Source: Paraspadella gotoi (Eukaryota > Animalia > Chaetognatha). Taken from it: a stretch of DNA of 35,829 nt. The notes under the pieces were generated by a model. It did no database searches. It was not told where the DNA came from and worked only from the letters and a program-made list of their open reading frames with translations. Shown piece after piece: positions 6,701 through 33,490 of the stretch. The DNA is taken from assembly GCA_051294375.1 (NCBI GenBank), contig JBJCIZ010000694.1:1-35829 (forward strand), given 5' to 3'. How positions within the stretch are numbered: position 1 is the stretch's first letter; every line of letters begins with the position of its first letter. The position numbers were made by a program, and so were the translations under genes.

Positions 6701-6962
6701 GGCCCTTGCATAAGTTCATCCCGCTTATAAGCATGTCTAAACCAGGTGGCTCATTGAGTAAAGCCATCAGCTCATGACCACTAAGTACCGGGTTCAATCC
6801 CAAACCGATACCGACCCTGTGGGAAGCGTGAGGACAGCCGTAAACCACCTTTGGGGCGTGGAAACCCCTCAAGCCTGGTTCCAAGCCCAGTACCCGTTCC
6901 ATGGCATGGTTGCTGACGGGGCAAAGAAGTTACGGGTAGTAGTTTTCAGCCCACTTAGCGCC
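6701..6962 (+). mobile_element. 262-bp tRNA(Met-like)-head + degenerate twister element (family C)
   Basis: A-box-like TGGCTCATTGAG, CTCATGA loop, B-box GGTTCAATCC. Twister remnants at 6819-6897: GA-GGA, TAA, P3, P4 CTGG/CCAG, L4 TTCCAAGC. TTATTC lies on both flanks (6695-6700, 6963-6968). Confidence 0.65.
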
Positions 6963-7013
6963 TTATTCATAATTTTTTTTATTATTGTCATTAACTAATA
7001 AAAAATATTAAAC

Positions 7014-7270
7014 TGTGGCAGCAAGACTTAAAGCTGCCTCACTGCTGTCCGTCCTCAGCCTCATCTCAATGGCTGAGCAGGCTAAATCATCTCATTCCAT
7101 CCGTGCGTCCCGGGTTCAATCCCTGGGTATCCCGGTTCTGGCTTAAATGTGACGGTGCCGGTATAAACATGCCAGTGACAGGAGGCGGTCACTGAGGGTC
7201 CGCAGCCCCTACGCCAGTTGGTGAGATACCCCGCGCCCCGGGTATCACAGGCTATCCTCCCGTTGCCATA
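7014..7270 (+). mobile_element. 257-bp tRNA-head + twister element (family A) with 4-bp TSD
   Basis: Starts TGTGGCAGC, ends GTTGCCATA, and AAAC is duplicated at 7010-7013 and 7271-7274. 5' hairpin GGCAGC/GCTGCC, A-box-like TGGCTGAGCAGG (7070-7081), B-box GGTTCAATCC (7113-7122), 3' hairpin GTGAGATACCC/GGGTATCAC. Confidence 0.85.
7138..7217 (+). ncRNA. Type-P5 (circularly permuted) twister ribozyme
   Basis: P5 CTGGC/GCCAG; P2 ATGT/ACAT; GA at 7151-52; T1 CGG/CCG; short P1; UAA at 7164-66; T2 GC/GC; P3 CAGTGAC/GTCACTG; P4 AGGG/CCCT. L4 is TCCGCAGC, with one conserved A replaced by C. Confidence 0.85.
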
Positions 7271-7981
7271 AAACACATATTTATAAAAATATAACAGAAA
7301 AAATATTATTAATTTAAAAGAATAGTATTTGGAAAATCTTTCAAAAATACAATTATTTTCTTTTTTTTTTTTTGAGGCAATATTGATAAAAATTTTAATA
7401 TTTTTAAAAATTTACATATAAATATAATTTATAAAAAGTAAAATAATCATTCAGCTATGTATAATTACTATAATTAACCATAAAATAAATAATTTTAGTC
7501 TAAAATTTTTTTATTCCTAAAAACAAGTTATTTTTTAACCGGAAGTGGTACGCCAAATAAAGTGGCGTGGAAAGTCCATAAATCTCTACCTGAGAAATTT
7601 TTCATTGTGATATTCGTTTTTTTCATTGAAATTGGAATGAGAAACTTTGCAAGAACCAACAACTTTTCTAAAGTGGGATATTTTTGGGAGCCCTAATATT
7701 AATATAATATAATATAATATAATTTCTATAAATGAAAAGCAAGTCAGAATACACTAGCTCGCTCACGGCGTAACGGTAAAATCCTCAATAAAGACCTTTA
7801 TGGATTTTCTTTGTTCCGGTGGCGTTGGATAGCCCAAACACTGCAGTTTCAGAAATCATCCATGGTTTTTGTAATATTTACTGCGCTACTGGTGCAAAAA
7901 TTGCTAAGAACCAAAATTATCAGAAACCGCTTCATTCTTTCTGATTTTTTTTTAAGCGCGGAGCGACATATCTGTTCTCAG

Positions 7982-8102
7982 GTTCTCGGCTTCGAAGTTG
8001 ACTTCATCAACTCTGTCCAGTTTTCGAACCACACCGGCTACGGGACCTTCAAGGGCCAAATTCTGGGCGCTGATCAACTTGGCGAGCTTTACGAAGGATT
8101 AG
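7982..8102 (+). CDS. PDXK: Pyridoxal kinase internal exon ([40 protein letters not shown])
   Basis: Diagnostic [11 protein letters not shown] motif of pyridoxal kinases. Acceptor ttctcAG ends at 7981 and donor GTttga starts at 8103. 121 nt, phase 0 to 1. Confidence 0.95.
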
Positions 8103-9650
8103 GTTTGACGTGAGCAGCAGTTTTCCTTGTTATTTTTATTACCTAAAAATTAAATTTGATTGCAATGGTTTTTTCCAAGTTGGCGTAAAATAGAGATGCG
8201 CATCGTTCAAATCGAAGTTACGATCAAGATTCCTTAATAGTTCACTTCTATTCAAAACTGCATAGACAAGGCCTCAACAAATTATATCAATATGGGCAGA
8301 TTTTGAAAGTGTGGCGTCTTGGGAAGCCAACGGAGGTAGAGCGCGATCGAAATTCCCATTTTATCATGCCCAAAAATGGTATTTAAATGGACTGGTCAGG
8401 CCGTTTTTTCCCTTTTCCCAAAAAACCTGCTAGATCTTTTGTAAAATAGAACAAATCATATCAGTATGGTTTCGGATAGCTTATTGTCTTCTCTCCAAGA
8501 TAATTAAAAGAAAAGTTTAAATTCTTTCAACCTTGAATGCTTGATAAAGCAATCAAATGAACTTGTTTTTTAAGTGAAAACTGCATCGTCAAGCCTTCAT
8601 TTTTTTTCTAAAACCATCGAAACAAACTATTGATTTTACTGTTTTAGGTAGAGCGTGGGGATAAATTTAGCCTAATTATATAAAATTTTATGCAAATACG
8701 AATGAAGTCCGTTTATCGCACGGAAAAACCGTTTTTAAGTGCAATCCGGGCCGTATTTAAAACTGGTTATAGAGGTTATCTAAGGAGGACTTCGATCGAA
8801 AAAAAGGATTGATCATGCGCGATCCGGGCCAGATAAAAAAAAATTAAAATTTACCCTACGTTTAAAGTTTTGGAACGGTTCGCGGTCTGTTTTTAGGCAA
8901 TGCCCGACTACAGATATTCATTAAACCAGGGTTAAATTTTTCATAATGATACAATCAATATCATTTAATTATAGTTTTTTTTTTCCTATTATAGTTACAA
9001 ATAAATAAATCATGGTATTTATCGAGATTAATACGTTTTAAAGGTCTATGGGAAAATGAAACAGTTCGCGGTCAGTTTTTGATGGATTTATAGTTAAATT
9101 TAATAATACTAAGCTTTTCCAGGGCATATTGGACATGGAAGAGCAAGTTGAAAAAAAAGTATGCAAGTTAAAAAGTATGCATACTAGAGCGTAGTGAAAG
9201 TTAAGTACAGAAATTCTAAAAGTCAATTATGAACAACATACCATCAGTGAACATTAATTTATAAAAAAATATAATTTTATGTTTTTTAATTTTCGCAGTA
9301 GGCTATATTTATATTTAGTATACTATCCTTATAAAATCGAAAAATATCAAAATAGGCTCTTTTTAATTTTGATTGCAGATTTAAATTCCTCGTCAAAAGT
9401 TGATAAAATAAAATATAAATCATTTTTAAAAATTCTTTCATTAAGTGGGTTTAATATATAAAAAGTTAATTTTAAGCTTAAAATATAGCTTTTTCTAATT
9501 TTTGACCCACTTAATGAAGGAATTTTTCAAAAAGAGTTATATTTCTTTTTATCAACTTTTTATGACATCCAAATCTGCAAAAAAAATTTAGAAAAAACTA
9601 TGGAAATTTTAACATTTATTGGATTAGTACTAGTATAATGCATGCTTTTT

Positions 9651-9914
9651 TCCAACTTGCATACTTTGTTCCAACTTGTATACTTTGTTCCAACTTGCAT
9701 ACTTTGTTCCACCTTGCATACTTTGTTCCAACTTGCATACTTTGTTCCAACTTGCATACTTTGTTCCAACTTGCATACTTTGTTCCAACTTGCATACTTT
9801 GTTCCAACTTGCATACTTTGTTCCAACTTGCATACTTTGTTCCAACTTGCATACTTTGTTCCAACTTGCATACTTTGTTCCAACTTGCATACTTTGTTCC
9901 AACTTGCATACTTT
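9651..9914. repeat. 19-bp minisatellite (TCCAACTTGCATACTTTGT) x about 14
   Basis: Head-to-tail near-perfect units with no spacers. Confidence 0.97.
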
Positions 9915-10248
9915 TTAGATGATTACTGCTAAATTATCGTAGGCAGATATGACATTTTAAGTTAAGTACTACGCGTAGTTCAAATTCTTATTGGATCAAA
10001 ACTAGTTCGATTTTAACCGAAAGTTGATCGGTTCGAAGAGCGATTTTTTGCCATAACTTTTGAACGGATTATCCGATTTTGATGAAATTTTGCATGGAGA
10101 TAATATTTTTCATTTCCTCTCGATCGATACCATATTCATTAAAAAATACTAAATAGTTTAGAAACGATGCCTATCCCCACGTAAAAGTACAAACGTTTGT
10201 CAAACGTACGTATCTTCGATAAAAATAAAGAATTGATTTCAATTTCAG

Positions 10249-10331
10249 TTGCCAACGATTTACATCGCGATTACACTCATATCCTCACCGGTTACATTGG
10301 CTCCACGTCTTTTCTTGAGAAAGTCGTCGAG
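10249..10331 (+). CDS. PDXK: Pyridoxal kinase exon (VANDLHRDYTHILTGYIGSTSFLEKVVE)
   Basis: Y-x-x-(I/V)LTGY motif. tttcAG acceptor, GTagaa donor. 83 nt, joins the previous exon in frame (G+TT = Val). Confidence 0.93.
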
Positions 10332-10579
10332 GTAGAAATTAGCTATCAATTTATTTATCATTTAATTTATTTACCATTTATTTACTATAGTTATTGAGCA
10401 TTTATTAACTTTTATTAACTTTTTCTCTTAGTTTTAAGAAGGTGATGATAACTCATAATGGATGAGATTTTTCCATATTTTTATCGACGCAATCGCTTGC
10501 GCTTGCGACAATTTTGTTACGATGGTCCTCATGAAGCTTTTAAAAGGCGTCGTCGTCAGTGTCGTTCCAAATAATAGAT

Positions 10580-10800
10580 TATGGCAAAAGCCGGGTTGCC
10601 TGTGATGCCCATTGGGATGGGTCATCTCACTGTTGGCTTTGGGGGCTTCCGACCCTAAGTGCCGCCTCCAGTCACTGGCGCGGTTACTCTAGGACGGTAT
10701 CGATTTGCCAACGCAGAGGGAAGTCGTTAGGACTGTGGATGGAACACAACGCCTGGGATGGTGTGTTCCCCCTCTGAGGCGGTGTGAATATACCGCCACA
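10580..10800 (-). mobile_element. 221-bp twister element related to family A, with 4-bp TSD
   Basis: The minus strand starts TGTGGCGG and ends TTGCCATA. AGAT is duplicated at 10576-79 and 10801-04, and an empty-site-like sequence ATAGATCGCCTTTTT occurs near 26704. The 3' half aligns with 7171-7270. Confidence 0.85.
10632..10712 (-). ncRNA. Degenerate type-P5 twister ribozyme
   Basis: P5 GTTGGC/GCCAAC; T1 CCG/CGG; UAA; T2 GC; P3 CAGTGAC..GGCACTT; P4 AGGG/CCCC; L4 TCGGAAGC. P2 has mismatches and the catalytic G position reads T. Confidence 0.7.
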
Positions 10801-11001
10801 AGATCGCCTTTTTATCTCGCCAGACGGGCTAATGCTTAAGCCGTCTTGGCCGTGATAATCGTCGTCGTCGCTTTTTTTACAATAGGAAAAGTGTATATTT
10901 GTAGGAAGCTAAAAATTTAGATATTGCTCGTCATCATCAAGATCTTTAAAAATCACACGTTTCATATGGATTTATGGTATAATGGCAACTAATAATGGTA
11001 C

Positions 11002-11043
11002 TATGGTGGACTAAAATCCACCAACCGTTCAGCGGCCATTGGT
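11002..11043 (+). mobile_element. Family B 5' fragment truncated by another repeat
   Basis: TATGGTGGACTAAAATCCACCAACCGTTCAGCGGCCATTGGT runs directly into the GGTTCCGC-TACAAA repeat end. Confidence 0.7.
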
Positions 11044-11351
11044 GGTTCCGCTTACAAACGGCGAATTTAGCACAAAAAAAAACTTTTTCCAATATTGTTC
11101 AGTCGTTACTTATAATATTAATTTAATTTGTACCGCAATACAAATCGGGCCGAACTAAGGATTGGTTAAAATCATCTCCACCTGCTTCTAATGATAAATT
11201 CTATATTTAGGAAAAAAAATCATGTCCATTTTCGTCCATTTTCACTTTCGTCTTCTGATTTGAATTCCAAGGAAAGTTGAGAAAATCTTTTTTCTTTGGA
11301 AATCCGTTCTTCCTTATCTTCTTTACCTCTGGGTTAATTTTTTACATATAT

Positions 11352-14286
11352 GACACAAATGAAAATAACGTGGCGTTACTGTCTCGTGCTGATTTTGTCC
11401 CCTTTAAAATTGTTTCTGAGCCAAATTAATTGATTATTACTTTTGGTAATATGTGCGATATACACTACTGGACATTACTGTGTCTGACCATAACCCTTGA
11501 CCATCAACAAAAAAGCTAACGAGATCAAAAATAGTAAAAAAAGATGAAGCAATATAGCTTGAAACGCTTACAAAATTTTAGACCATTGCTTTTATAGATG
11601 CCAAAAAAAATATTAATATTATTTTAACAAAACTTTAACAATAACTTAATAGTTAACCGAGACCAAGATGAATATTTTTTACCCATCATTTCCTCAATTA
11701 TATGAATCATATGTTTGTAATTAGTCAATTAATCTAAATAACAATATGACAAATTCATTTTCAATTTTTTTTATGAATGGAAGTTTTCTCTGCTTACTCC
11801 CCTTGTGTCTAATTATCTAATATTTTAGAGGTATTTCCAAAAACCTTATATAATTACTATATTTTCACTTTTTTTCAATTCTTTCAAACAAAAACAACAT
11901 CATAAAAACATTTTTAAATTAATAAAAAAAAATTGATTGAATGATTTTGAAAAAATATTTTGAACTTGAGAATAATGGATTTCGAGTTAGGAAAAAAATT
12001 TTGCAATTTTAAAAAAAATCAGCCTCTAGCCTTTCAATTTTTCTAAGGCTGACTTTTTTTATTTTTTTGATATTTTGATTTTCTATGCAAAACCATTATT
12101 CCAATGAGCATAGGTCGGAAAAAAATTTTTTCAACAATTTTAAAAAAATTTCAAACTTTTCTAATTAGGCTTTTTTTGGGAAAAAATAAATCAATTATTA
12201 TACGATGGGTACACCTGAAAGTGATATGTCTCTAAATGACAAAAAAAAATTTCTTCAAGTTTTATTTTAAAATTTAAGTATTGTATCAATAGAAATAAGT
12301 GAGATACCTCTAACTTTGCCAAAATTTTTATTTAACAAAGATTTGTACTGCGTAATTAAAAAAAGTTCTTTTTTTTTAAATAACTTTTGAAAAAAAAGAG
12401 CTAGCAAGATGGTGTGGTATCAAATTAAAGCCCTAATCATGGGAACACCTTTCTAAAAAAAGTTTATTAAATTAAATCCATAAATCTTTACACAGCTTTT
12501 GTTTAATTCAGAGTTAAAAGTATAACAGTATTTTGCTTTAAAAATTTTAATGAAGGCATATGAATTTTTTTATTTTCTTTTGTAATTTGAAAAAGGAAAG
12601 ACTGAATTACATTTTGATTATTATTAAATTTTCTTTATTCCATAAAACTGCTTATATTTTTAAGTTAAAGTAAAAAACAAGCAAAAATTTATGTTTTAGC
12701 TTGATAAAATGTCATTTTAAATATCAAAAATGATAAATACAAAAATGTTTTCAGCTTGATATAAACAGTCTGGACATCTACCTTCTTGTCTGTGAAAAAA
12801 AATATGGAATTTTTCATTATCTTTAACTGCAAACTAAAAGCTTGGACACACTGCTTGTTTATCATAATAAAGTTTTAAAAAAATTATATAACTGGCAATA
12901 TATTTGACAAAGCAAGACATCATTGTGTTGATAATTTTTTTTTAAATATAGCAAGGAATTTAATTCTATTATTTATCATCCATTTTAATTTAAAAAAAAA
13001 TATTTATCATAATAGCCCATTAGAACAGGGTTCATTGACTGACTTAATATTGAATTTTTAGATATCTTTACTGCCCCATTTCACAAGATATAAAAGTAGG
13101 ACTAGCTCTGACGAAAAAGTCAGAGGTTTTTTTAATATATTCTTGACCGGCCAATGTAGAATGATGGCAATATTTGCTATTTTAAGTTTCAAAAAAATCC
13201 GACCATAAATATAGAAAATATTAACCAAAATCTTGGAAAATTCACCCCTTCTTTGGAAGATTTCGCCATATAAGATTTTTTCCGAATCTGACTCCCGGTT
13301 GAAAACTCTTAGAATTCCGATCTGTAGCTCCTCTTTTACTTTTACTTTAAATAAAAATTTCAGCAAAATGGACTAATTCACTTTAACATGATTGTATCAT
13401 ATTAAAATAACCAAATGAAATGTAAAGAAAATTTTGAGAGCCCTTACACATTTGCTATCGATTCTGAATCGAAGTTATTGTAAAATAGACAACATACCTT
13501 AAATGCGTTGACATTGTATTGAAGTTGAGAAATCCCTTATTTTATATATAAAAATTGCGTCAAAAAATTTCCCAGAGCGACCAGTCCATTTGAATCGAAT
13601 GGTTCATGTCAAATGATGGTATTGTCAAGAGAAAAAAAATGCGAGCCCTTCAGATGCAACAGGATCGGAATCAAGTGTTTTTACATCTATTTTTACCCGA
13701 ATTTTTCCCAGGGGCGTTGACATTATTTGGTAGTCAGATTTGAACGAAAATTCCATTGAAAAAGTTTCCTCGATTTCTAAGAACTACGTAGACTCCTATA
13801 AAAGGTCATTGTTATCATGTCAGTAAGTCCAGATTATCTGTACCTTTATGCAACCTGCATTCTGAATTTTATTTTTTTTCCTTTCAAATGTATTAAATAA
13901 AAAAAATTATTTGAGAGAAAACAATCGGCGTGGAGGATGCCATTGGTAAGCCTTAGTTACCCCACTTCCCGATCGAATTTTTTAAATGAGGTTTTTTTCC
14001 ATCTATTTGAGACATAACACTAACTATTGGTACTATTATTTTTTTTTTATTTTTTTCTATTACAATTCTAGGAATAAATATGAATAAGTAACTTTTTAAA
14101 AAAATTTATCATCTTTCACCCTATATTTCAGTCATATCTAAAAAACAAAAAAAGATTTTGCATTGATATTTTGGATATCGACATATGAAACTATAACGTT
14201 TCAAAAAATAAAAAGAAATATAATAATATTGAACAGTAAATTTTTTTTATGCACGGAACAGTAACGTTACGCCATTTCATTGTGTC
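11352..14286. mobile_element. Non-autonomous TIR DNA transposon, copy 1 (possibly Kolobok-like)
   Basis: Imperfect TIRs GACACAA(A)TGAAA...CGTTACTGT with TATA-rich flanks. Colinear in reverse with 28108-33127; partial copy at about 475-1600. Confidence 0.75.
13097..13797 (+). mobile_element. About 700-bp TAGGA...TCCTA non-autonomous element, copy 1
   Basis: Ends are TAGGACTA(A)GCTCTGACG and ACGTAGACTCCTA with TAAAAG on both flanks. The empty site is at about 28585-28600. Confidence 0.8.
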
Positions 14287-14984
14287 ATATATATATTTAT
14301 AGTTTGCCTATGAATTAATTTAAAGTTGACAAGTCAAAAAGTTTCATTTTCAGTTTTTATCATAATTTGTTAAAAGAAAATTGTTACAAATTGGTTTAAA
14401 TTAACAGAAAATATAGGCTATTGAATTAAGCTTTTTAACACCTATAAAATTATCAAAAAAACTTTTTTTTAAAGACATTTTTTAATTTGTGATTTTTTGT
14501 GACTTGCATTTATTTTTGATAAAGAGAATATTTTCGACTCATTTTTTAGTTTTAAAAGATGAGGTACATCCCTTAACCCAATGGAAAGCGGCTAGGCAAC
14601 CAAAATTGAAATAAAATCTTGCGCTACCCAAAAATTTTTTTACGACAGTTCATTCAAAACCTCAGAAAATAAGAGAACAAGAGAAAAAGAGAAGTGGAGC
14701 GAGAAAGAGAGTGAAAAAAAGAGGAGCAGGTAGAGGGAGAGGGATTGGATTTGAAAGTAGAAAAAAAAGAGAGAAGGCAAGAAAAGATTGAAAAGGAGAG
14801 AGACGAAGAGAGAAGAAAAAAAGAAAAAATAAAAAAGAAGAAAAAAATAATAAGGTAAAAAAGGCAAAAGAGAGGAAAGGGATGAGAGAAGGATTGAAGG
14901 AGGAAAAGAAAGAGTGACAGAGAGGGAGAAAGAGAAGGAAAAAAAAAATGGAGGGGAAAAAAGAAAAAGATTAAGTGTTATGGA

Positions 14985-15160
14985 CATGGTGGACTAAAAT
15001 CCACCAACCATTCATCAGCGGCCATTTGTGCTGGAGGCAAGTCATTCGCCTCCCAACCCAAACGTCCCGGGTTCTAGCCCGGTGGTCGCCTTGCAGCCCC
15101 TGTAACATGGTGTTACAGCCTGATCCGAAGCTCAGGGACTGCTTATATTGAACAGTTCTT
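14985..15160 (+). mobile_element. Family B element with an internal deletion of the twister cleavage-site half
   Basis: Same hairpin, tRNA head, P3, P4, L4 and P5' as the 24.8-kb copy, but the roughly 28-nt segment carrying GA-CGG and UAA is missing. Confidence 0.8.
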
Positions 15161-15426
15161 GTTTTCTGTGTGTTCTTGTTCTCTGTCTCTCTCTCTCTCC
15201 CTTACTCACAAATTTAATTTCTTTTCCCTCACTTTCTCTCTCTCTCTCTCTCTCCCAAAGTCAATTTGGAAAACATGAAAACTGTAAAATTTCAAAAGTA
15301 CTAATGAAGGCTTGAATAAAAGCCGAAACTTGTCTGTACAATAAAAATAAAATCGTTGCATGTATCTAAGACTCGATCTTTAATTTCAAATATCTAAAAA
15401 CACAATGAAAGAAAGTTATAGGACTA

Positions 15427-16578
15427 TAGGACTAAGCTCTGACGAAAAAAGCAGAGTTTTTTTAATATATTCTTATACCGGCCAATGTAGAATGATGGCA
15501 ATATTGTATTTTTAAGTTTCAAAAAAATCCGACTATAAATATAGAAAATATTAACCAAAATCTTCGGAAAATTCACCCCTTCTTTGGAAGATTTTCGCCA
15601 TAAAGATTTTTCCGAATCTGACTCCCGGTTGAAAACTCTTAGAATTCCGATCTGTTAGCTCCTCTTTTATTTTTACTTTAAATAAAAATTTCACAAAAAT
15701 GGACTAATTCACTTTACCATGATCGTATCATATCAAAATAACCTAATAAAATGTAAAAAAAAAATTTTGAGAGCCCTTCAGACACTTTGCCAAAGGATTC
15801 CAAAATTGGACCTCATTGTTGAACAGGAAACATACCTCAGTCACGTATATCGTTTTCAAGGAAAAAAAATCTTTCATTTCTATATAAAATCAGAGATGGA
15901 AAATTTTTCCGTCTAGAAGCAGTCTATTTGTTCTGGCTTGTTTGATATCAAGATGTTGATGATTTGACAAGAGAAAAAAAATGCGAGCCCTTCAGATGCA
16001 ACAGGATCGGAATCAAGTGTTTTACATCGATATTTTACCAGAATTTTTTACCAGGAGCGTTTATATTGTTTGGTAGTCAGATTTGAACGAAAATCTCCAT
16101 TGAAAAAGTCTTCCTCGACTCTAAGAACAACGTTGACTCCTACTTTAAATAAAAATTTCACCAAAATGGACTAATTCACTTTAACATGATCGTATCATAT
16201 TTAAAATAACCAAATGAAAAGTAAAGAAAAATTTTGAAAGCCCTTCAGACATATTGCTATCGGATTCCTGAATTCAAAGTTTATTGTAAAATGACAACAT
16301 ACCTTAAATGCGTTGACATTGTATTTATAATATAAAAATTGCGTCAAAAAATATTTTCCCGAGCAGACCAGTCCATTTGAATCGAATGGTTCGATGTCAA
16401 AATGATGGTTATTTGTCAAGAGGAAAAAAATGCGAGCCCTTCAGATGTAACAGGATCGGAATCGAGTGTTTTTACATCTATTTTTTACCTGAATTTTCAG
16501 GGGCGTTGACATTATTTGGTAGTCAGATATTTAACGAAAACTCTCCATTGAAAAAGTCTTCCTCGACGTAGACTCCTA
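15427..16578 (+). mobile_element. TAGGA...TCCTA element, copy 2, with an internally duplicated right half
   Basis: About 15677-16142 is repeated at about 16145-16578; same termini as copy 1. Confidence 0.75.
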
Positions 16579-16989
16579 ACATTTATGGAATATGCTGGAA
16601 GAAATCAGCAAAACGTTTTCTCTTTTTTTTAAATAGTTTGTACTAGCGCGTCAGAAATCTAAGAAGAAACTCGAAAATTTATTCTGACAAATTTTGCCTT
16701 TCAAGGCTGACGTTTATGATTATATCTCGGAAACCATTGTAGGAATTTAAAAACGGTTTTTTGCAAGTGAATATTGATATCATCCTCCAGGGACCCCAAT
16801 AAAAATATATAAAAAAATAAACTAAGATTGGCTCTTGAGTGAGGTATCTACACTACGCCTTACTAACCAATGAAAGGAAAAGAAATAGTTCAGATTTCGT
16901 TGTTTAAAAGAATCTGATTGTAAGCGGAACCATTTAACTTTCTCATCTTCTTCCCGAACTGACAAAGTCCGAAATCTCTGCGTCAATAA

Positions 16990-17283
16990 TTAAATCCTCG
17001 TTGCCCAAACGATGACAACGGCGACGACGCCCAGCAAGACGAAACGAAAGACTCCGACAGCAAAAGCGACGCCGCCGCACTTCCCTCCTAAAGCCGGACA
17101 GCCTTTGCAGTTGTCGGTGCAAGCATCAAACTTCTGATCATTAACGGTAACTCCGAAGCAGCAGCCGTCGTTATACTGTTGTCCGTTTTTCTTGCAGTAT
17201 TCGTTGGACTTGCAATGGGAACCATCTTCAGCGACGCATAGGATGAACAGCATCAACGGCAGAAAGAAGAAAAGCGAATTCAT
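16990..17283 (-). CDS. Small single-exon Cys-rich membrane/secreted protein (97 aa), nested antisense in a PDXK intron
   Basis: ATG at 17283. Hydrophobic signal-like N-terminus MNSLFFFLPLMLFILCVA, eight Cys in the predicted mature part (C-C-CC-C-C-C-C) and a C-terminal hydrophobic helix. GC-rich island with GTC/GGC codon use like the PDXK exons. Confidence 0.6.
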   Translation of the reverse strand: MNSLFFFLPLMLFILCVAEDGSHCKSNEYCKKNGQQYNDGCCFGVTVNDQKFDACTDNCKGCPALGGKCGGVAFAVGVFRFVLLGVVAVVIVWATRI

Positions 17284-17703
17284 TTCTTTTATCAAATTTA
17301 AAAAAAAAAAAATCGCGAAAGAAATCAATTTTATTTTTTCAAATAAAAAATACTTGGGTCTTTATGGTTGAATTTTTCGGTGATAGAGATTTTTAAGAGT
17401 TTATTTTAATTTTTGTTTTGTTTAAAAAAAATTTATCAATTTGCAAACCCAACAATACGCTTATTGAAGAAAGCGATGCCTTTTTATTTAGTTTCGCTTT
17501 GATTGATAGAATCATTTGTTTTCCGTTAAATATCTTGCCGTGCTCTTCCCCGCAATCAGCTGTTATGTAAGCTAAAGTTTCAGTTTAATCTTTCACAAGA
17601 CTTTTATCTTCAATTCAAACACGTGTGTAAAAGGTTCCGCGTACAAACGTTGTATTTAGGAAAAAAACGACTCTTTCCAATATTGTTCAGTTGTTACTTA
17701 CAA

Positions 17704-19350
17704 TAGAGCTCCCAGAAATACCATTCATTTTTGAAAGTTCCTGATACCTGCAAAGTTTCTTGTGCCAAATTTTGTGGAGAAAACGAATATCACAATATAA
17801 AATTTTCCTGAATGCTCTTTATGGATTTTCCACGCCATTTTTTGCGTCGAACCACTTCCGGTTTTAAAAAATCATGATTTTGGGAAATAAATGAGCTGTT
17901 ATTCAGCTGGCATACTGGCATACTAATTAATCAAAATAAAGTTACTACTAACCTTATTACTAAATTTTTTGTTGTGGTTTATAAATAAGGTTAAAAAATT
18001 ATGATTATGAAAGACTTCAAATTAAAAATTATTAGTTTTTTTTAAGCCAAATCGTCTCTGACCAAATTACTCTACAAATTCTAATAAGATTTTATAAGAA
18101 AGTAAGATTTGGTTATACAAATAGAACTCTCTAAAGGATTTTAAATATTTAATCCTTAAGCCAAGATATTGGCTTTTAAAGGTTTGCCAAATGATGCCAA
18201 AAAAAGTAGCGAATTAGATAGAAGGCGCTTTGGCCTTAGTGGCTAGCAAGCCTCCCACTCAACCTTAACCCTAAACCAGGTCATAATAAGTCTTCTCAGC
18301 TCATGACTTCTCCAGCAAGCTACTTTGATAACCTTAATCTTAACACGGGCCTCCTATTTCACACTAAATTAGAAACTGAACTCTAGAATTACCTGTGGGC
18401 CTCTCCCCCAACCTAAACCTTTTATTCATTTTCAAGCCTCAACACGAATCTTAATGTCCCTGGTACAAGCCTGATTAAGTATTGCGATTTTGCAATTTGG
18501 ACAGGCTCAGAAAAGGACAGTAAGCTTGTTTTAGGGTTAGGGAAGGTACTGGGGAATGAAATTAAGGATTAAAGTTTGGCCTTATTGATGACGGGAGGCA
18601 GGGATGCCTAATGCCTAAGCTTGGGTTAGTGTTGAGGGAGAGGCTTGCATGACAGATATTAGGGTTAGAGATGTCCCTCATACAAGCCTTTCCCTCAACC
18701 CATACCTTACAGCCTTTGCCAATTCCTGTCCATCCCTTTCCCTCAACCTCAATCCTAACCCAGCCTCATAGCCATTGCCAAGGCTAAACCTTAATCCCTA
18801 ACATCCCTGGCCAGTACCTTTCCCAACCTTAACCCTTATTCAGGCCTCAATGTCTCAATGTCAGCAAGCCTTGCCCTACCCCTAAATTAAAAATTAACAT
18901 TATGGTACTCAACCTTGATGGCACAGATATAGCTAACAGCAAAATTATCATTTGGCCAGGTTGCTATGATTAAATATTGCGATTTTGCAATTTGGACAAG
19001 CTCAGAAAAGGACAGGAAGCTTGGGTTAGGGTTAGGGAAGGTACTGAGGAAGGAAATTAAGGATTAAAGTTTGGCCTTATTGATGGCCGGGAGGGTTAGT
19101 GGTAAGGGAGAGGTTGCATAACAGATATTATGGTTAGAGTTGAGGCTCAGAGGTGTTAAGGTTAGGGCGAGGGTTAGGTTAGATATCCCAAGCAAGGGAA
19201 ACTGATTAAGAATAAGGTTTTGCTTAGGGCCTGGTTTAGGGTTAGGGTTGAGTGAGAGGCTTGCTAGCTGCAAAGGCCAAGTCACCTTCCATCTTTTTGC
19301 ATCACTCTGTAAACTTTTTAAAGTCCAATATCTTTGTTTAAAGATTATAG
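17704..19350. mobile_element. TAGAGCTCCCA-ended element carrying a fold-back array of degenerate TTAGGG/CCCTAA repeats; reverse partial copy at about 33530-34439
   Basis: Alternating CCCTAA-rich and TTAGGG-rich blocks at 18260-19260. 18145-18290 is inverted at 19230-19350. Related ends at about 7500-7694 and 4830-4970. Confidence 0.6.
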
Positions 19351-19674
19351 ATTCAATTTCCTTTCGTTTCGTTGTTTTTTGTAGATTTAGAGAAAAAGCT
19401 CATTTTGAGCTTTTTCTTTACCTTTATTTTCTCTAATTCTACAACTTAGCTATCCCTAACCACATATTCTTCTTCTTTCTCTTTATTTCAATCTTAATTA
19501 ATAAACTAATTAAAATATTCTCAGTTGAATCTACTAGTTTAAACAGAAGAAAAAAAGAGAGAAAGAGAGAGCGACATATAATTAAAAGAGAGATAGAGAG
19601 AAGCCTGACAGCCGCTGGAATCAGAAGCAGCAGCGACGGAGAAAAAGAGGGAGAGAGCGCGACATATTATTAAG

Positions 19675-22230: not shown

Positions 22231-23619
22231 AAATTCAAAATACTTTGCTTTCTCCAATATCAATTAACAATTAAAAAGAAAGGATTATCACATCATTAAA
22301 ATATTTATATTATTTTGTAAACTGAATCTGACACAAAAGTCGAAAAGTTAACTTGCCCACAAAGGCTTTGTACTATGCTACCCGTAGTGGTCAGTAAGAA
22401 TGACCTGATTATAACAGATCATGAATGACCTTGTTATGGCTGACCTTTTCAGCCAATGTAAATACGTAGTTGTGATTTTTAGCGTTTTAGCCTTTTTTGC
22501 CACCGCAACGATTCCGCGCCTAGCCCAGGCGCCTCGCCGCGCCAATCAGCCTCTCGTTAGTCTCGTTATGTTGGCGGCGGCGCCTGTTTTGCACAAATCC
22601 GCGTCGAGAACGAGTCCACCAATGCCCACACCAATGAACTCATTCACTATATTTTTTTTCCGTGTTAAGCTCCATAATTTCCGTTTTCTATTTGGTCCGG
22701 AACCGGGATTTCGGATTTAGCGTCGATTCGGTCGGACTAATGATTAGTACTACGTAGTTTAAATATTATGTGGCTCACTTTTTTGATCGTTTAGCAGCGA
22801 AAGTAGATCCCCCGGAACGCGGGTTTTTTGGTTCGCTTTTTGGCGATTACCTTTGAACGCGTGGACCGATTTTAATGAAATTTTAAACTAAGAAACTTGA
22901 GGTTATTTGCTTTAGGGTATTAGGTAATATTTTTTTAAATATTTTTATTTTAAAAATAAATATTTTTAAATATTTTTTAAAATACTTTAAAAGTAAAATT
23001 TAGCCAATTTTTATTAATTTTTTTAAAAAATTAAATGGTTTTTCGAGACTCCAAAACCCCGGTCGGGGAAAGTAAAATATTGTCATTATATCTGGATTAT
23101 TATATGGGTTATTTGGATTACTTTTATTTTCGCCGACCGGGTTTATCTTGTGATAAACATGACATAGGGTTTTGTTTATAAAATTATGCAGGTTCTTTCT
23201 TTTTAGGGAGGAAGGTTTGTCACATGGAAAACTTAATCCACGGGGAGTAGGGTATCGAGCCGCGAAGGCGCCACTTGTGGGGTATTGAAGGCGTGAGGAA
23301 ATAGACGGAAAATCGTTTACTTCGCGAAGAGTAGAAACTAGAGTAGAGAATGTATCGCTAGACAAAATATACCGAGGGGCAGGAGGAGGAGGAAGGAAGA
23401 GGAGAATGGGACGGCAAGCTAAATCCTCCTCTGTATTTATATATTTATTTATATATTTATTTCTTTTTTATACATTAAGCCAAGTTTGTTATGTATAAAA
23501 CTTAGTTTTCCTGTATCAAATATGATTTTTTGTTTGAGTATCAAAGTTTGTCATGGGCTCTAAGTCTAACTAAGGTCGGTTCTTTCTTATGCGATTGCGA
23601 CTTTTAAGATTTTTTTTTT

Positions 23620-23686
23620 GCGAAAACAAAGTTTGAATTTGTACTACGATTTTTTTTAGTAGTACAAATTCAAACTTTGTTTTCGC
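23620..23686. other. Perfect 28-bp hairpin with 11-nt loop
   Basis: 23620-23647 is the exact reverse complement of 23659-23686. Confidence 0.9.
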
Positions 23687-23782
23687 TAAATACTAAAACA
23701 CAACGAAACGAAAGGAATATCACAATATAGATTTTTTTAGAGACGATTTAAAATTTGTAATCTTTATGTATTACAATGTGAG

Positions 23783-23957
23783 GTTGTCCGTCATCTGAAA
23801 TCAAAGAACTCGTCCCTCGTTTACGTCTGCGACCCAGTCATGGGCGACGACGGCGTCATGTACGTTGACTCGGCGCTGCTTCCCATCTACAGAGACGTCG
23901 TCCTCCCTGTCGCCGATGTCGTAACTCCCAATCAGTTCGAGGCCGAATTATTGACTG
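23783..23957 (+). CDS. PDXK: Pyridoxal kinase exon ([58 protein letters not shown])
   Basis: YVCDPVMGD and [10 protein letters not shown] motifs. Atypical gtgAG acceptor, GTcagt donor. 175 nt, phase 0 to 1. Confidence 0.95.
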
Positions 23958-24109
23958 GTCAGTAATAGTAATAGAATATCGATTTCGAGGACAAAATTAA
24001 TTAAAATTAAATTTAATTTTCCTAATATTGAATTGAATAAGCGTTGTTATTTAAAAAAGCTAAAGAATTGTGTCAGATAAGTTTATCACGCACGATACTT
24101 AAAATTCAG

Positions 24110-24226
24110 GCGTAAAAATCACAGACATGAAATCGACGTGGAGAGCCGTCGATTTTTTTCATTCCAAAGGAGTTGGAACCGTCGTCATTTCCTCGACTAA
24201 CTTGGGTGGCGACGAGAGATCTTTGT
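24110..24226 (+). CDS. PDXK: Pyridoxal kinase exon (GVKITDMKSTWRAVDFFHSKGVGTVVISSTNLGGDERSL)
   Basis: H-x-x-G-x-x-TVVI(S/T)S motif. ttcAG acceptor, GTgagt donor. 117 nt, phase 1 to 1. Confidence 0.93.
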
Positions 24227-24313
24227 GTGAGTTTATTCAATTTAAAGACTCTTAAATTATGTGTGTGATCACCATATTGACTTTATCGACTTCGTCCCTC
24301 CTGATTTCCTTAG

Positions 24314-24481
24314 TAGGACTGGCAAGTCGCCTCTCGCCCTCTTCGACGATCCCCTCGAGACTCAGCGTCTCGATTCCCAAACTGGAGGCTCATTTCACGG
24401 GGACGGGCGACCTCTTCGCGTCTCTCCTCACAGCCTGGTTGCATCACCACCCCGGAGAGCTCAAACTCGCCTTGGAGAAAG
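24314..24481 (+). CDS. PDXK: Pyridoxal kinase exon ([56 protein letters not shown])
   Basis: Ribokinase-family catalytic GTGD motif (FTGTGDLF). ccttAG acceptor, GTgaga donor. 168 nt, phase 1 to 1. The following exon was not recognised in the window. Confidence 0.95.
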
Positions 24482-24677: not shown

Positions 24678-24942
24678 TATGGTAAACAGAAATGTAATAA
24701 ATACAAATATTGAAGAGACAGTAATTATTGTTGTGTTAGTGACAGAACCGTTCAATATAAGCAGTCCCTGAGCTTTGGATCAGGCTGTAACACCGTGTTA
24801 CAGGCGAGTTAAGCGCCCCGTCCCTCTTAACTGCTTGGCGGCCACCGGGCTAGAACCCCGGACCTTTGGGTTGGGAGGCGAATGACTTGCCTCCGGCACC
24901 AATGGCCGCTGATGAACGGTTGGTGGATATTAGTCCACCATA
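24678..24942 (-). mobile_element. tRNA(Gly-like)-head + twister element (family B), best-preserved copy
   Basis: The minus strand starts TATGGTGGA-ctaata-TCCACC. 72-nt tRNA-like head at 24838-24909 with perfect acceptor stem GCGGCCA/TGGCCGC and a CTCCCAA anticodon-like loop. Putative end TTACCATA at 24678; the flanks do not match (TTTT vs ATAT), so that boundary is uncertain. Confidence 0.75.
24759..24836 (-). ncRNA. Type-P5 twister ribozyme (family B)
   Basis: P5 AAGCAGT/ACTGCTT; GAGG-GA-CGG; UAA; CTC-GC; P3 CTGTAACA/TGTTACAG; P4 CTGA/TCAG. L4 is TCCAAAGC here and TCCGAAGC in the two sister copies, which restores T1 CCG/CGG. Confidence 0.82.
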
Positions 24943-25233: not shown

Positions 25234-25706
25234 TATGAAATTGGTACAACCAATATAAAAATTATCCATTCATTTAATAAATAAGCTATCTTTCCCCTGA
25301 CTTTGGACAGGCTTTGGTGGTTTAAGGCCTCCATCACTCTTACAAGATAATGACATAGCAGGTCCCTGCAAGCTTTCAATCAAGACTCTCTCACAGTCTC
25401 GTTTATTCACTCCCAGAGTACCTGGCTTCCTTATCAATGAAGTGGTATAATATTTCAAAGAATGTTTCAATTGTATGAAAAGACCACTCCCTTAAATATT
25501 AGATCGGGGAATACTTATTGTACTCCGCACTCGCATCAAAATACAAGGAGCTGAATTTTATGAAATTGGTACAACCAATATGAAAATTATCCATTCATTT
25601 AATAAATAAGCTATCTTGCCCCTGACTTTAAACAGGCTTTGGTGGTTTAAGGCATCCATCACTCTTACAAGATAATGACATAGCAAGTCCCTGCAAGCTT
25701 TCAATC
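25234..25706. repeat. About 150-bp direct duplication (25234-25383 and 25559-25706)
   Basis: ATGAAATTGGTACAACCAATAT...GCAAGCTTTCAATCA occurs twice. Confidence 0.85.
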
Positions 25707-28700
25707 ATATATATTATTTTCCTGCATTCTCGTTACTTTACTCCTTGATAGGTTAACTTTTCAGAGAATTCTTTAACGTGTGACAAATATACAAATATAT
25801 AATTATATTGAAGTTTAATTTTTTCTGATAAATAGCTTTAAAAGAACCCTCACCTTGTGTTAAATAATAACGAGAGAATAGCAATCATTTTTAAAGTGTG
25901 TCGATCTTAACATGATTTGCGATTCACGATTAGGATTACTTAATATAAGGAAAATGGTACAGAAGCCATCAACGAAAGTGATACTGATAGTAAACATGTA
26001 AAACATAGGTTTAGGGTTATTTTTAATCATTAAATTATATATTAAGCTTGTAAAAATGATATATCTTATATGATTTAAATTTTTGCTTTAACAATTTAAA
26101 GTTTCATATTAAAAAATTAATTAATTTTAAAAAACCCTGTTTTTTTTGCTGGGTTTTTTTGGGTGGGTTTTTTAATGCCAACCCTGAGTAAGTGAGTATA
26201 AGAGTAATTAATAGCAACTTCAAGTTTGCGAAGCATTTACTTTATCTCAAAATAAAATTTTGAGGTGATCACGACACAAGTATGAAACAAGTAAATAATA
26301 CAGCGTTGACTTTCTGGTCAATGGTCACCGTCTTTCCTGTTAATCAAATGACTACAAAAAGTATAAATCAACATCAGCTGCATTATCTGGCTAATTATTA
26401 GTCAAAATGACTTAGTATTTTTACAATTTATTCATATTCAAACATGACCCATGGACTTATTCCCTTGTGACTTTTAAAGTTAACAAAATATAAGATATCA
26501 AACATCATTCATTTCAAAGAATTTAATGGTGATGACGATTTAGGATCGGCTCAGCTTCTTTGTGACGTTGTCGTCTGCATCAGCGTCACGCTTTTTTCTT
26601 ATATAGTTATAGACTGGGGCTTACAATTGTTTTTTATTTTTTTTTTATTGTAACGCTTTTGCGCATAAGTGGCTTCGTCGTCGTCGTCGTTGTCGTCGGT
26701 ATTATAGATCGCCTTTTTTATGATTAAATTTGGGTGTATGAAGCTGAAAATTTATATACAGCTTCTCATCATCGATGTGCTTAAAATTGAGTCTGGACAG
26801 TTATTAAATATGTTTTGTTTACGTTTTATCAAAACAAACAAATTTTCTCTCTTTTATTCTCATATTTCTTTTTCTCTCTTTTCTCTTTTAATTACATGTC
26901 TCTCTCCCTCTCTCTTTTCCCTAGTCACTGATTCATAATCATAGCCATAGGGGAAAGAAACGAGTCTGCAGCTGGCTCTGCAGGGGCTTATTCTTTTTCT
27001 CTCTTTTTTCCTGCTGCTTCTGCTGCTGCCTTTTGAATTCTTTCTTTTTTTTTTGGGTGCCTCTGCTGCAGAAAACGATTTGGCTTCTTTCTCTCTCTCT
27101 CTCTCTCTGATTAATTTTTTTTCTTTAAAAACTATTATTATCGCCATTTATTCCCAAATTTACATCCGAGATTTCCGTGGATTTTTTTTCCTAAATATTC
27201 TAAATATCAATCTGAATAATATTTTTTTAAAATATATATTTACTTTATTATTTTATTTTACTTTACTTCATTTTACTTCACTTTAGTCTTTACTTCACTT
27301 CGTCAGTCTGATTTAAGTTTCACTTTTTTGTCTGGGAATGCTGACAGTGTTTAGAGAGGTCGCATTCGATCAAACTGCTTGCTTATGCGGGCTAAAAGTA
27401 AAACAAAAGTACCTTCAATAATGTCTCTCCAGACTTAGCACTTGCTAAAAATTAAACTTGAAAATAAGTTATTTTACTGTTTTATTGAAAGAACCCCCTC
27501 CTTGACCTAGCGGAGAGGGAGAAGACGTCGGGAGAGAAACTGGACACCTGAAACCGGGATACAGGAGTGGCGGCGTAAGTTTATAAGTTTCTATCACTTG
27601 GAGTTTGATATTTAATGGTACCGATTAAATAAAATATAAAGCATATAGATTTCATACAGACAATAATGAATATTAACTAATTAATCAAAGCAAATAAGTA
27701 ATAAATAACAAATTATGAAGAATACCATAAGTGTCATTAGGCTCCCACAAAACGTTTATTATTTTAGAGAAGAGTCCCGTTTCAGAGCAAAATCTGGAAT
27801 GACGCGCAAAAGAGAGAAGAGACGAATGTCGATATCTCCTTTATTAAAAGAGCATCTGAGTTACGGTCGTCTGGACTTTAACATTATATTTATTATTCTT
27901 TATTTTATTTTTTTTTAATTTTTTTTAATTTTATTTTATTTTTTATTTTTTATATTTTTCTCGAATTAAGATTTTTTAGTATCAAAATTTGTCGTCAATC
28001 CAAAGTTTTTAATATTTTAAATATCTTCTGAAAGCCCTTTCAAATCTAAAGAGAATGACGATCTTACGAATACTGTAGTATAATTTTAACTGGCAGCTTT
28101 AAGTTAAGACACAATGAAAAATGGCGTAACGTTACTGTTCGTGCATAAAAAAAATTCACTGTTCAATATTATTATTTTCTTTTTATTTTTTTGAAACGTT
28201 ATAGTTTCATATGTTGATATCCAAAATATCCAATGCAAAATCTTTTTTGTTTTTATAGATATGACTGAATATAGGGTGAAAGATGATAAATTTTTTTAAA
28301 AGTTACTTATTCATATTTATTCATAGGAATTGTAATAAAAAAAAAAAAAAAAATAATAGTACTAATAGTTAGTGTTATGTCTCAAAATAGTATGGAAAAA
28401 AACCTTATTTAAAAATTCGATTCGGGGAAGTGGGGTAACTAAGGCTTCAATGGGCATCCTCCACGCGATTGTTCTCTCAAATAATTTTTTTTTATTTAAT
28501 ACATTTGAAAGGGAAAAAAGAAATTTGAATGCAGGTTGCAGAAAGGGTACAGATAATCTGGACTTTTGAACATGATAACCATGACTTTTATATCTTGTGA
28601 AATGGGGGCAGTAAAGAAATCTAAAAAATTTCATCATTAAGTCAGTCAATGAACCCTTTCAATGGGCTATTACGAGAAATATTTTTTTCTTAATTAAAAT

Positions 28701-31831: not shown

Positions 31832-31865
<34 letters not shown>

Positions 31866-32368
31866 GAGAAAGGAGAGAAGAGAGAGAGAGAGAGAAAGAA
31901 AGAGAATAGTATCCACGAAAATTCGGATGAAAATAGGGATTTGTATTGAAAAAAAGCGCGGAATAAATGGCAATAATAAAAGTTTTTTAAGGAGGAAAAA
32001 AATACGAATTTTTTTCAAAAAACAACGGATCACGCCAAAAGATCGGAAGATAGGGAGACAGACACACACAGAAGAGACAGAGAGACAGAGAGAGGAGAGA
32101 GAAAATGTAGAGAGAGAGAAGAGACACCGCTGCAGAGAAAAAGAGAAAGGAGAAAGAGTCGATATATATAATTTAAAGAGAGAGAGACGAGAAGCTCTAC
32201 AGCCCGCTTTTACTCGTTAAAGAATCAGCAGTACTATATGGCGCCGCACGTAGCGTGAGCTATTCCTCTAGACCCCAAAGGACCCGGGTTCGGCGCCTGG
32301 TTCGCGGCATCGTTTTTTTAGATTTAGTGAACACCACATTATATCTTACAAAAATTTTTTGTAAAAAA

Positions 32369-32407
<39 letters not shown>

Positions 32408-32969
32408 AGAAAGAGAAGCTGGAATGAACGCTGCAGAGCGGACTCGTTTTAAGAAGAAGCGTGACGGAGAGAAGAGAGGAGAGAGATTCGACATATAATT
32501 AAACGTTTTTGTTTTGTAAATAAAACATAACAAATACCAATATTGATAGTAACATGAGAATGTTTAAAGATCGTTGATGATATAGAAGGCCCATATATGA
32601 AAATTCCATCCCTATGATATCACCACTTTTCCAGAAGCCATGATTGCATAAAAAGCGAGAACCGAAAGCTAACGAACAAAAAATCTAGACAGGACGGCTT
32701 TGCCCGCCTGGCTCGATAATAGAGGATATTTGTTTTGTTTGTGATAAAAATGTAAACAAATATTTAATAACTGTCCTGATCAATTTTAAGGAATCGATGA
32801 TGACAAGTCTGAAATTAATTATAATTATCTATTAATTAAATAAATTAATTAATTGCCTATTAAAATTAATGTAAATCTAATTTAATTAATTCTTAAATTA
32901 TAAAATCCAATTAATTTAATTAATAAATTATCGTAGGGCAGATGCCGACGATTGTTTTGCTCAATTGTT
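30175..32969 (+). mobile_element. Helentron-associated / DINE-1-like non-autonomous element
   Basis: 5' subterminal repeat GTCGGATCTGC with a local inverted partner AGATCCGA, (CGTC)n tract, ATAACTC...GAAATTT core, and 3' partner GGCAGAT(G)CCGAC. Inserted in a T-run without TSD (empty site near 11505-11530). Related 3' ends occur near 4795, 9941 and 34727. Confidence 0.65.
32243..32309 (+). pseudogene. tRNA-derived sequence (pseudogene or element head)
   Basis: GCCGC...GCGGC acceptor-like stem and GACCCGGGTTCGGCGCCTGG T-arm/B-box, followed by a T7 run. D and anticodon arms do not fold properly. Confidence 0.45.
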
Positions 32970-33281
32970 GGTTGATCAGGTCAGTGGTTATGGTCAGATA
33001 CGAAGTATGTCCATAGTGTATATGGCACATATTACCAAAAGTTAATGATCAATTAATTTGGCTCAAAACAATTTTTAAAGGGATAAAATAGCACGAGACC
33101 GTTTCGCCACGTTAATTTTTCATTGTCTTTAATTAGTCCTACTCCACATTTGTTATTGGCTATCTTAAATCTTTTTTTCTCAAGGCTCTTTCAATGATAC
33201 TTATATAATAATAAAATATTTTAAATGTTGAATATTTAAACAAGTCATATATTTTAAAAAGATTAAAATTTAAGACATGCT

Positions 33282-33490
33282 TATGGTGGACTAAAATCAC
33301 CCGTTTCATTGCAGCGGCCATTGGTAGCCGAGGCAAAGTCTTCGCTCCCAAAAAAGGTCCCGGGTTCTAGCCCGGTTGTGCTGTGCAGTAAGAGGGACGG
33401 GTAGCGCTTAACCCGCTGTAACCAATGTGGTGTTACAAGCTGATCCGAAGCTGGGACTGGCCTTATTATTGAAACGTTATCTGTCATCAA
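33282..33490 (+). mobile_element. Family B element, indel-rich copy (twister about 33385-33460)
   Basis: TATGGTGGACTAAAATC start, GCGGCCATTGG head, GAGGGACGG...TTAACCCGC-TGTAAC...TGTTACA...CTGATCCGAAGCT. Confidence 0.75.

Follow-up and report, generated by a model that had tools for sequence, protein, structure and literature searches.

Type-P5 twister ribozymes behind tRNA-like heads in short mobile elements, possibly solo long terminal repeats

What are the short, GC-rich elements on a contig of Paraspadella gotoi (JBJCIZ010000694.1) that join a transfer RNA (tRNA)-like head to the fold of a twister ribozyme, and by which route did they spread? The window—the whole stretch of DNA that was analysed, 35,829 nucleotides (nt) long—is AT-rich eukaryotic DNA, dense in repeats, and contains six previously noted elements, numbered here E1 to E6 in window order, together with the further pieces E7 to E9 (Table 1). 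A preliminary description had read the six as mobile elements that fuse a head for RNA polymerase III (Pol III) to a twister in its permuted, type-P5 order. Our analysis supports both the fold and the mobility and, at a probability of roughly one half, leads to the reading that the elements are solo long terminal repeats (LTRs) of retroelements that are non-autonomous and depend on Gypsy; Pol III would transcribe them, and the twister would trim the RNA to unit length.

That the type-P5 twister fold is real leaves hardly any doubt. A strict descriptor, requiring P2, P4, both pseudoknots, GA and UAA in the P5 order, returned two defect-free cores in the window—one in E2 (7147–7210, plus strand) and one in E8 (minus strand)—and five once a single defect was allowed (these two and those of E1, E5 and E6), with none at either setting in 200 dinucleotide shuffles made in 250-base blocks. 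The P5 motif order had been claimed for all six elements, with a partial deletion in E4; E2 keeps it without defect and E1, E5 and E6 with one defect each, while E3 has lost GA and has an unpaired P2, and the 5′ half of the core is deleted in E4. The catalytic G of GA and the U^A cleavage site are present in E1, E2, E5, E6, E8 and E9. Across seven cores—a small and partly related set, from whose own sequences the structure was drawn—92.9% of the cells pair and nine of the ten pairs vary on both sides, a level of covariation matched by none of 500 shuffles, with slid controls dropping to 17–51%. These two-sided changes include all three base pairs of T1 (a helix that reads CGG/CCG in E2 and E6, CCG/CGG in E3 and GGA/TCC in E1), as well as one T2 pair (GC/GC to AC/GT in E8). 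The T1, P4 and P5 pairings listed in the preliminary description are present where it had placed them, and its claim that they covary across at least three families with little primary similarity is borne out: families A (E1), B (E2 and E3) and C (E4 to E7) align globally at about 50%, a value that does not exceed background, and BLAST matches none of them to another. In addition, the predicted fold of E5 is better than that of 200 out of 200 shuffles (z = −4.18); the corresponding value for E2 is z = −1.77.

An outside test of the fold used 121 phage loci picked by a P5 pattern; 11 of them contain cores that satisfy the strict descriptor, 14 cores in all. A covariance model built from the window cores only and run on 100 of the 121 loci matched 8 of the 11 positives and 1 of the 89 others, the matched loci being also GC-rich, which may have aided the matching. 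Phage patterns with a T1 of CGG or GGA gave one strict match in 240 loci, possibly by chance, and metagenome contigs scanned with the core patterns of families A and B gave none. As a separate observation, two loci on viral contigs (L027 and L118) hold two or three type-P5 twisters at most 1 kb apart, and the window-trained model marks a further likely twister copy at L027:321–378. The twisters of the window are predicted with good confidence to cleave at U^A; about 94% of the natural twister candidates that have been assayed were active, and flaws in P1, P2 and P4 were tolerated (PMC11662667; this and most other papers are cited here from the parts available).

The mobility proposed for the elements finds support in their high copy depth, in the sharpness of their ends and in the target duplications. 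E2 and E3 have common termini, and each is flanked by a 4-bp duplication (Table 1), two matches whose joint chance is about 1e-4; E2 also allows one other pair of boundaries. The two copies are 74.5% identical over the 3′ 102 nt. In family C, the 5′ end is kept in four of four copies. Nine of eleven public sequencing runs (one organism, three studies) cover part of 6500–11100, and contigs of four runs were aligned on 6620–7320 at 80% likeness, a span that covers families A and B only; none of the runs is listed as RNA, and one of them, X6, which is by our guess an RNA run, covers the flanks too. The contigs break precisely at the borders of E2, before 7014 and behind 7270/7271; the flanks beyond are AT-rich and unrelated, with a consensus of ATAT at both family B junctions, and several diverged full-length copies of family B are among the contigs listed. 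For family A, loose contig ends lie behind 6966 in runs X1 and X6. In X1, the depth summed over contigs, which is no true copy number, amounts to about 660,000–790,000 over E2, against 79–100 in seven of the eight single contigs listed, and peaks near 1,000,000 over E1; this ratio, in the thousands, marks the families of E1 and E2 (A and B) as high-copy. No A-tail was found on any element, and no tandem array over E1 to E6.

The same material corrects the preliminary description in its details. Element ends were moved to about 6971 for E1, 24711 for E5 and 33522 for E6, and the list of six proved incomplete, having missed the 5′ fragment E7 and three headless cores on the minus strand—those of E8 and E9 and a decayed third one (Table 1). 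A 6-bp TTATTC repeat around 6701–6964, considered as the duplication of E1, was rejected because the contigs extend the family end to the position just given. Moreover, the well-supported majority letters of family A fall, in E1, on P5, P1, P2, T2, P3, P4 and the stem around the B box, and they restore pairs where the window copy mismatches; the descriptor defect of E1 is absent from them. Since these majority letters pair, family A stands closer to an intact twister than its copy in the window. E2, with at least two differences from its family majority among those listed, seems close to it.

Upstream of the twister lies the tRNA-like head. A B-box pattern run over both strands of the 35.8 kb gave five matches, all inside E1, E2, E4, E5 and E6, always on the strand of the twister and upstream of its fold, 35–39 nt before GA where GA is present. 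The tRNA-derived head described for all six elements is thereby confirmed for five, E3 being without a B box. A-box-like motifs, although imperfect, lie 43–44 nt upstream of the B box in the three elements measured (E1, E2 and E5), which is the A-to-B spacing of a tRNA gene; ARAGORN called no tRNA in the window. Family C has a 73-nt head with a 7-bp acceptor-like stem, after which P5 starts at the very next base, and a further stem closes head and ribozyme together; in E5, a 5′ hairpin comes first, followed by this closing stem enclosing the tRNA-like domain and the twister. The head begins 33–56 nt inside the element, preceded in families B and C by a terminal hairpin, and runs of at least four T are absent from the elements or found only near their 3′ ends, an observation that is weak on its own. 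On these features, the head is predicted to work as a Pol III promoter, and probably does so. Elsewhere in the window, a lone GC-rich stretch at 32235–32315 (plus strand) folds like a decayed tRNA cloverleaf and is followed by a T run; it has no twister and no ARAGORN call.

Taken together, the element ends, the 4-bp duplications and a tRNA-like part that lies well inside the unit speak for LTR-type elements rather than short interspersed elements (SINEs), a class that the preliminary description had not identified, and insertion by an integrase along an LTR route is rather likely. In a two-LTR copy, Pol III would start at the tRNA-like head of the left LTR and read on, and a twister cut at U^A in each LTR would release a unit-length RNA, which the host tRNA ligase could close into a circle. 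A Gypsy-type enzyme would then reverse-transcribe round the circle, giving solo-LTR, unit or multimer complementary DNA (cDNA), and integrase would insert this cDNA with a 4-bp duplication, as has been proposed for plant hammerhead retrozymes. In those plant elements, the cleaved RNA is without an R repeat and circles can yield solo LTRs directly (PMC4918200); in addition, RtcB circularises animal retrozyme RNAs in vitro (PMC7229834). A ribozyme placed behind a SINE head would lead to 5′ truncation and cut the promoter off (PMC5786205), so that a second copy or a circle is needed, and the 33–56 nt upstream of the head could not be copied by a SINE transcript. Both problems vanish if the unit is an LTR.

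Several observations weigh against the solo-LTR reading, among them the lack of a B box in E3 and the fact that summed contig depth gives no true copy number. Clean duplications occur in only two of the five near-complete copies (E2 and E3): the ATAT of E5 is one of six candidates in AT-rich flanks, the flanks of E6 match at three of four bases, and E1 has no duplication at its inferred ends. The termini read TG...TA in family B and TA...CA in family C, unlike the TGT...ACA of Helenus elements, with which we compare them below. No full LTR–internal–LTR copy, primer-binding site (PBS) or partner Gypsy element was found in the window, and the only hint of a two-LTR form is a single X6 contig with a purine-rich run directly before 7013, which looks like a polypurine tract (PPT) and resembles the ends of Helenus internal regions. 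As to the ribozyme, the first adenine of L4 is replaced by C in E2, and P4 is closed by A-U in family C, where a G-C pair is essentially invariant in twisters (PMC5408937); flaws of this sort were often tolerated in the natural candidates assayed (PMC11662667). The covariance search proposed earlier as a check, with the Rfam model Twister-P5 (RF02684), fell short of its 37.6-bit cut-off for every core; run on the full window, it gave a single, weak twister match at 25296–25338 (25.8 bits), and searches of smaller stretches gave 18.6 bits for E1 and E = 0.0036 for the core at 25.3 kb. Finally, a covariance model trained on the 14 phage P5 cores recovered no more than a part of E1 (E = 0.009) and of E5 (E = 0.056), probably because T1 and P1 differ.

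How, then, do other accounts of the same observations fare? The elements could be SINE-like or Penelope/Naiad-dependent retroposons, with a Pol III head and a ribozyme, spread by target-primed reverse transcription from tandem or circular RNA and equipped with a twister borrowed from Naiad-type pseudo-LTRs. There is a precedent in the Pol III-plus-hammerhead SINE-like repeats of Schistosoma (PMC6765202), the headless E8/E9 form a partial direct tandem like a pseudo-LTR with a similar short-P1 twister, and families A and C are without proven 4-bp duplications. What makes this account rather unlikely is family B, in which both ends are sharp and fixed and are flanked by 4-bp duplications. Non-LTR retrozymes, by contrast, make longer duplications and form tandem arrays (PMC7229834), which are missing over E1 to E6, and Naiads are 5′-truncated partial tandems (PMC8557442). 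The conserved stretch before the head, out of reach for a SINE transcript, also speaks against it, as does, weakly, the lack of a Penelope-like protein match beside E8. 

A cut-and-paste origin deserves consideration as well, because Ginger-like DNA transposons have TGT ends and 4-bp duplications; the elements would then be non-autonomous relatives, carrying as cargo a Pol III gene for a self-processed RNA, which would serve in regulation or as a guide and not as the template of transposition. The ends of E2 do pair over nine bases as an imperfect terminal inverted repeat, the 3′ end of family A is an imperfect inverted copy of its 5′ end at 6692, and only single units are seen. We nevertheless hold this origin to be improbable: family C has no terminal inverted repeat, one flank is PPT-like, and an RNA intermediate accounts more simply for selection on an RNA fold in three unrelated families. 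An origin as solo LTRs from Gypsy-type elements that are larger or autonomous and use RNA polymerase II (Pol II) would fit E3, which retains ends, duplication and a twister remnant without a B box, and would turn the tRNA-like part into a structural relic or a processing signal (for RNase Z or RNase P, for example); the imperfect A boxes agree with this, as does family C, where a full acceptor-like stem stands with the ribozyme right behind it and a promoter needs neither. The B boxes and the tRNA-like A-to-B spacing kept in three unrelated families, together with the weak point of the T runs, leave little likelihood to a Pol II origin. That the twister likeness is due to chance, or is an inactive relic in ordinary GC-rich repeats, is very hard to credit, even with no Rfam match at the curated cut-off and defects in most window copies, given the empty shuffles, the covariation of both pseudoknots across families, the pairs restored by family-majority letters and the high activity, despite flaws, of the natural candidates assayed.

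If the elements are solo LTRs processed by twisters, their P1 suggests how two ribozymes might act together. In the window cores, the P1 region measures 6–8 nt; those of E2, E5, E6 and E8 form self-duplexes of 6–8 bp (−8.3 to −10.9 kcal/mol) and no hairpin, E3 keeps the palindromic core, and the palindrome is broken in E1 and E9, the family-majority letter making that of E1 perfect. Four kinds of palindromic tetramer occur (CCGG, GCGC, GGCC and CTAG). The P1 of the 14 phage P5 cores is a hairpin of 16–24 nt, self-complementary in none of them, and one further phage match has a non-palindromic P1 of 8 nt. In animal hammerheads, helix III is reduced to 1–2 bp with a palindromic loop, and the ribozyme is active as a dimer (PMC4209133, PMC7229834); by analogy with these minimal hammerheads, the short palindromic P1 suggests cleavage as a dimer, and the ribozymes of the two LTRs may pair through this reduced, self-complementary helix. 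Twisters can cleave without P1 (PMC5408937, PMC11662667), which counts against a dimer requirement. Gating of the twisters by dimerisation through P1 is only a tentative prediction, and the palindrome could be a packaging-dimer signal instead, of the kind that retroviral RNAs use. Equally tentative is the fuller picture of a new lineage of Pol III "twister retrozymes"—mini-LTR elements inserted by integrase, whose twisters might act as dimers, with a strand swap in P1, a joint cut and joined ends passed to the ligase, and of which thousands of scattered solo copies would remain weakly active in host introns. If it were true, twisters would have their equivalent of the double hammerhead, and a twister gated by dimerisation would exist in nature.

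The coordinates of all pieces are collected in Table 1. The E8 family is a fourth twister-bearing repeat family, without a tRNA head, present as a partial tandem pair and a decayed third copy; E8 and E9 look like Penelope-type pseudo-LTRs, and the open frame through E8 gave no Pfam and no protein match. Most of the window (7979–24480) is taken up by a spliced pyridoxal kinase gene on the plus strand, whose best named matches are animal proteins with at most 75% identity and whose first and last exons were looked for in the window and not found. Within or after this gene, the elements with a whole twister core (E3, E5, E8 and E9) are antisense to it, and the sense pieces (E4 and E7) both have an incomplete core; E1 and E2, also in sense orientation, precede the first exon located and may sit in intron 1.

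Table 1. Twister-bearing elements, their parts and the host gene in the window
Feature	Position	Strand	Remarks
E1, family A, decayed copy of a high-copy family	6692–6971	+	5′ end uncertain; family 3′ end ...CCACA in contigs
E1 tRNA-like A and B boxes	6747–6801	+	A box from 6747, B box 6791–6801, 44 nt apart; box pattern
E1 type-P5 twister, P5 to P5′	6820–6896	+	Predicted cut U6841^A6842; one defect
E2, family B, 257 bp	7014–7270	+	Ends TGTGGC...TTGCCATA; flanked by the 4-bp target duplication AAAC; terminal hairpin at the 5′ end
E2 tRNA-like A and B boxes	7070–7123	+	A box from 7070, B box 7113–7123, 43 nt apart; box pattern
E2 type-P5 twister	7138–7217	+	No descriptor defect; 8-nt self-complementary P1; predicted cut U7164^A7165
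E3, family B relative	10580–10800	−	Termini as E2; 4-bp duplication ATCT; no B box
E3 decayed twister	10632–10712	−	GA and P2 lost; descriptor/sequence
E4, family C	14985–15165	+	B box 15070–15080; twister 3′ half only; descriptor, box pattern
E5, family C	24711–24942	−	Ends TATGG...TCTTCA; possible duplication ATAT (weak, AT-rich flanks)
E5 head, 73 nt, tRNA-sized	24837–24909	−	7-bp acceptor-like stem, A-box-like motif, B box 24847–24857
E5 type-P5 twister, directly after the head	24759–24836	−	Predicted cut U24811; one T1 mismatch; 6-nt self-complementary P1
E6, family C	33282–33522	+	76.5% to E5; B box 33363–33373; twister core 33392–33455, one defect
E7, family C 5′ fragment	11002–11044	+	Truncated by another repeat; sequence comparison
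E8, headless 149-bp repeat	25234–25382	−	Defect-free P5 twister 25296–25339; T1 TGG/CCA, T2 AC/GT, palindromic P1
E9, 96% direct copy of E8	25559–25707	−	Core decayed (25621–25664); sequence comparison
Third E8-family core, decayed	6563–6607	−	Repeat part 6540–6612; sequence comparison
Pyridoxal kinase exons	~7979–8110, 10230–10334, 23777–23959, 24106–24480	+	Protein matches

Other features of the window were noted in passing. The AT-rich left flank of E1 (6620–6688) reaches about 30 times the depth of single contigs, and two runs show it fused to E1-family sequence at 6741; E1 may be nested inside another repeat. Long AT-rich repeats occur as inverted pairs (98–436/2336–2745, 931–1331/12445–12844, and 13146–13714 and 15500–16497/21528–22175), probably copies of DNA transposons resembling miniature inverted-repeat transposable elements. 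Degenerate TTAGGG-like repeats within longer repeated blocks (18200–19300 and 33550–33900) are possibly telomere-derived or telomere-targeting elements. A tandem array at 9639–9914 has 14.5 copies of a 19-bp unit with 97% matches, and a frame at 16990–17280 (minus strand) encodes a small cysteine-rich protein with a signal-peptide-like start and no Pfam match.

Among known systems, the terminal-repeat retrotransposons in miniature called Helenus (TRIMp3; Kojima 2024, PMC10886601) resemble the elements in several ways: their short LTRs contain tRNA-like A and B boxes some tens of bases from the end, they make 4-bp duplications in animals, they also occur as solo LTRs, and a dependence on Gypsy has been proposed for them. 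Their LTRs, with TGT...ACA ends, have a T-rich stretch right after the tRNA-like part, in the place where the window elements carry the twister, and two of them surround a PBS and a PPT, whereas the window holds single units with no internal part seen. The available text of the Helenus paper makes no mention of a twister, and six L4 motifs searched in the available part of its supplement, where line breaks can hide a motif, gave four matches, all of them in internal sequences and outside the LTRs; that the window elements belong to Helenus is unproven. The plant LTR retrozymes (Cervera 2016, PMC4918200) share a ribozyme in an LTR of about 300 bp, 4-bp duplications and solo LTRs, and their scheme, in which double cleavage leaves an RNA without an R repeat and a circle is the proposed template, is the one adopted here. 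They carry a hammerhead and, in the available account, no tRNA-derived head, where the window elements have a twister and a head, and their PBS and PPT boxes and circular RNAs have been demonstrated.

Pol III-plus-hammerhead repeats of Schistosoma and the animal non-LTR retrozymes (PMC6765202, PMC7229834, bioRxiv 10.64898/2026.07.22.740005) are likewise short, non-coding and high-copy; the Schistosoma repeats also place a Pol III promoter before the ribozyme, and these hammerheads have a weak helix with a palindromic loop and need a dimer. They differ in the hammerhead itself, tandem arrays, larger duplications and a Penelope-like linkage. The Rfam results for the window include no hammerhead family, E1 to E6 do not form the tandem arrays of non-LTR retrozymes and Penelope elements, and the four family C copies do not show their 5′ truncation, E8/E9 alone being partly tandem-like. 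Nor do the elements look like tRNA-derived SINEs (SINE2), given the sequence that precedes the head, the missing tail and, in family B, the fixed ends with 4-bp duplications. LTR retrozymes have a hammerhead in the LTR, and with a twister in its place the window elements likely work like retrozymes without being members.

The ribozyme itself agrees with type-P5 twisters (RF02684; PMC5408937; PMC11662667) in the order P5, P2′, GA, T1′, P1, UAA, P2, T2, (P3), P4, L4, in both pseudoknots, in the catalytic G and in the U^A site. It departs from them in a T1 that varies (CGG, CCG, GGA and TGG, compared with GGG) and in a P2 that often has a one-base bulge. A retroelement that uses a twister in an animal genome is the Schistosoma mansoni non-LTR retrotransposon, which we take to be the one named Perere-3. 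Its twister T-variants, in the available account (PMC8501958), follow the type-P1 order and belong to an autonomous element with no tRNA head or LTR-like ends. In the literature covered, mostly openly accessible and with Repbase and Dfam outside its scope, we found no twister behind a tRNA head, in an LTR or as a dimer. The remark in the preliminary description that no described class could be recognised therefore stands for the combination, while the modules are known separately: tRNA-like parts in LTRs (Helenus), ribozymes in LTRs (retrozymes), Pol III heads with hammerheads (Schistosoma repeats) and a twister in a retroelement. This makes the elements a new combination of known modules and not an unrelated new class.

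Eukaryotic twisters have almost no assigned role, and the elements would give the fold a definite job, the proposed one of defining both ends of a Pol III retroelement RNA, in families whose copy depth is very high. Since the Rfam cut-off misses their cores, ribozymes of this kind have probably been counted too low. Additionally, the palindromic mini-P1 offers a handle on whether twisters, like minimal hammerheads, are gated by dimerisation. With respect to the systems compared above, the solo-LTR reading would carry LTR-type retrozymes beyond plants into an animal-like host, add a second class of ribozyme to the hammerhead and join them to promoters of the Helenus type.

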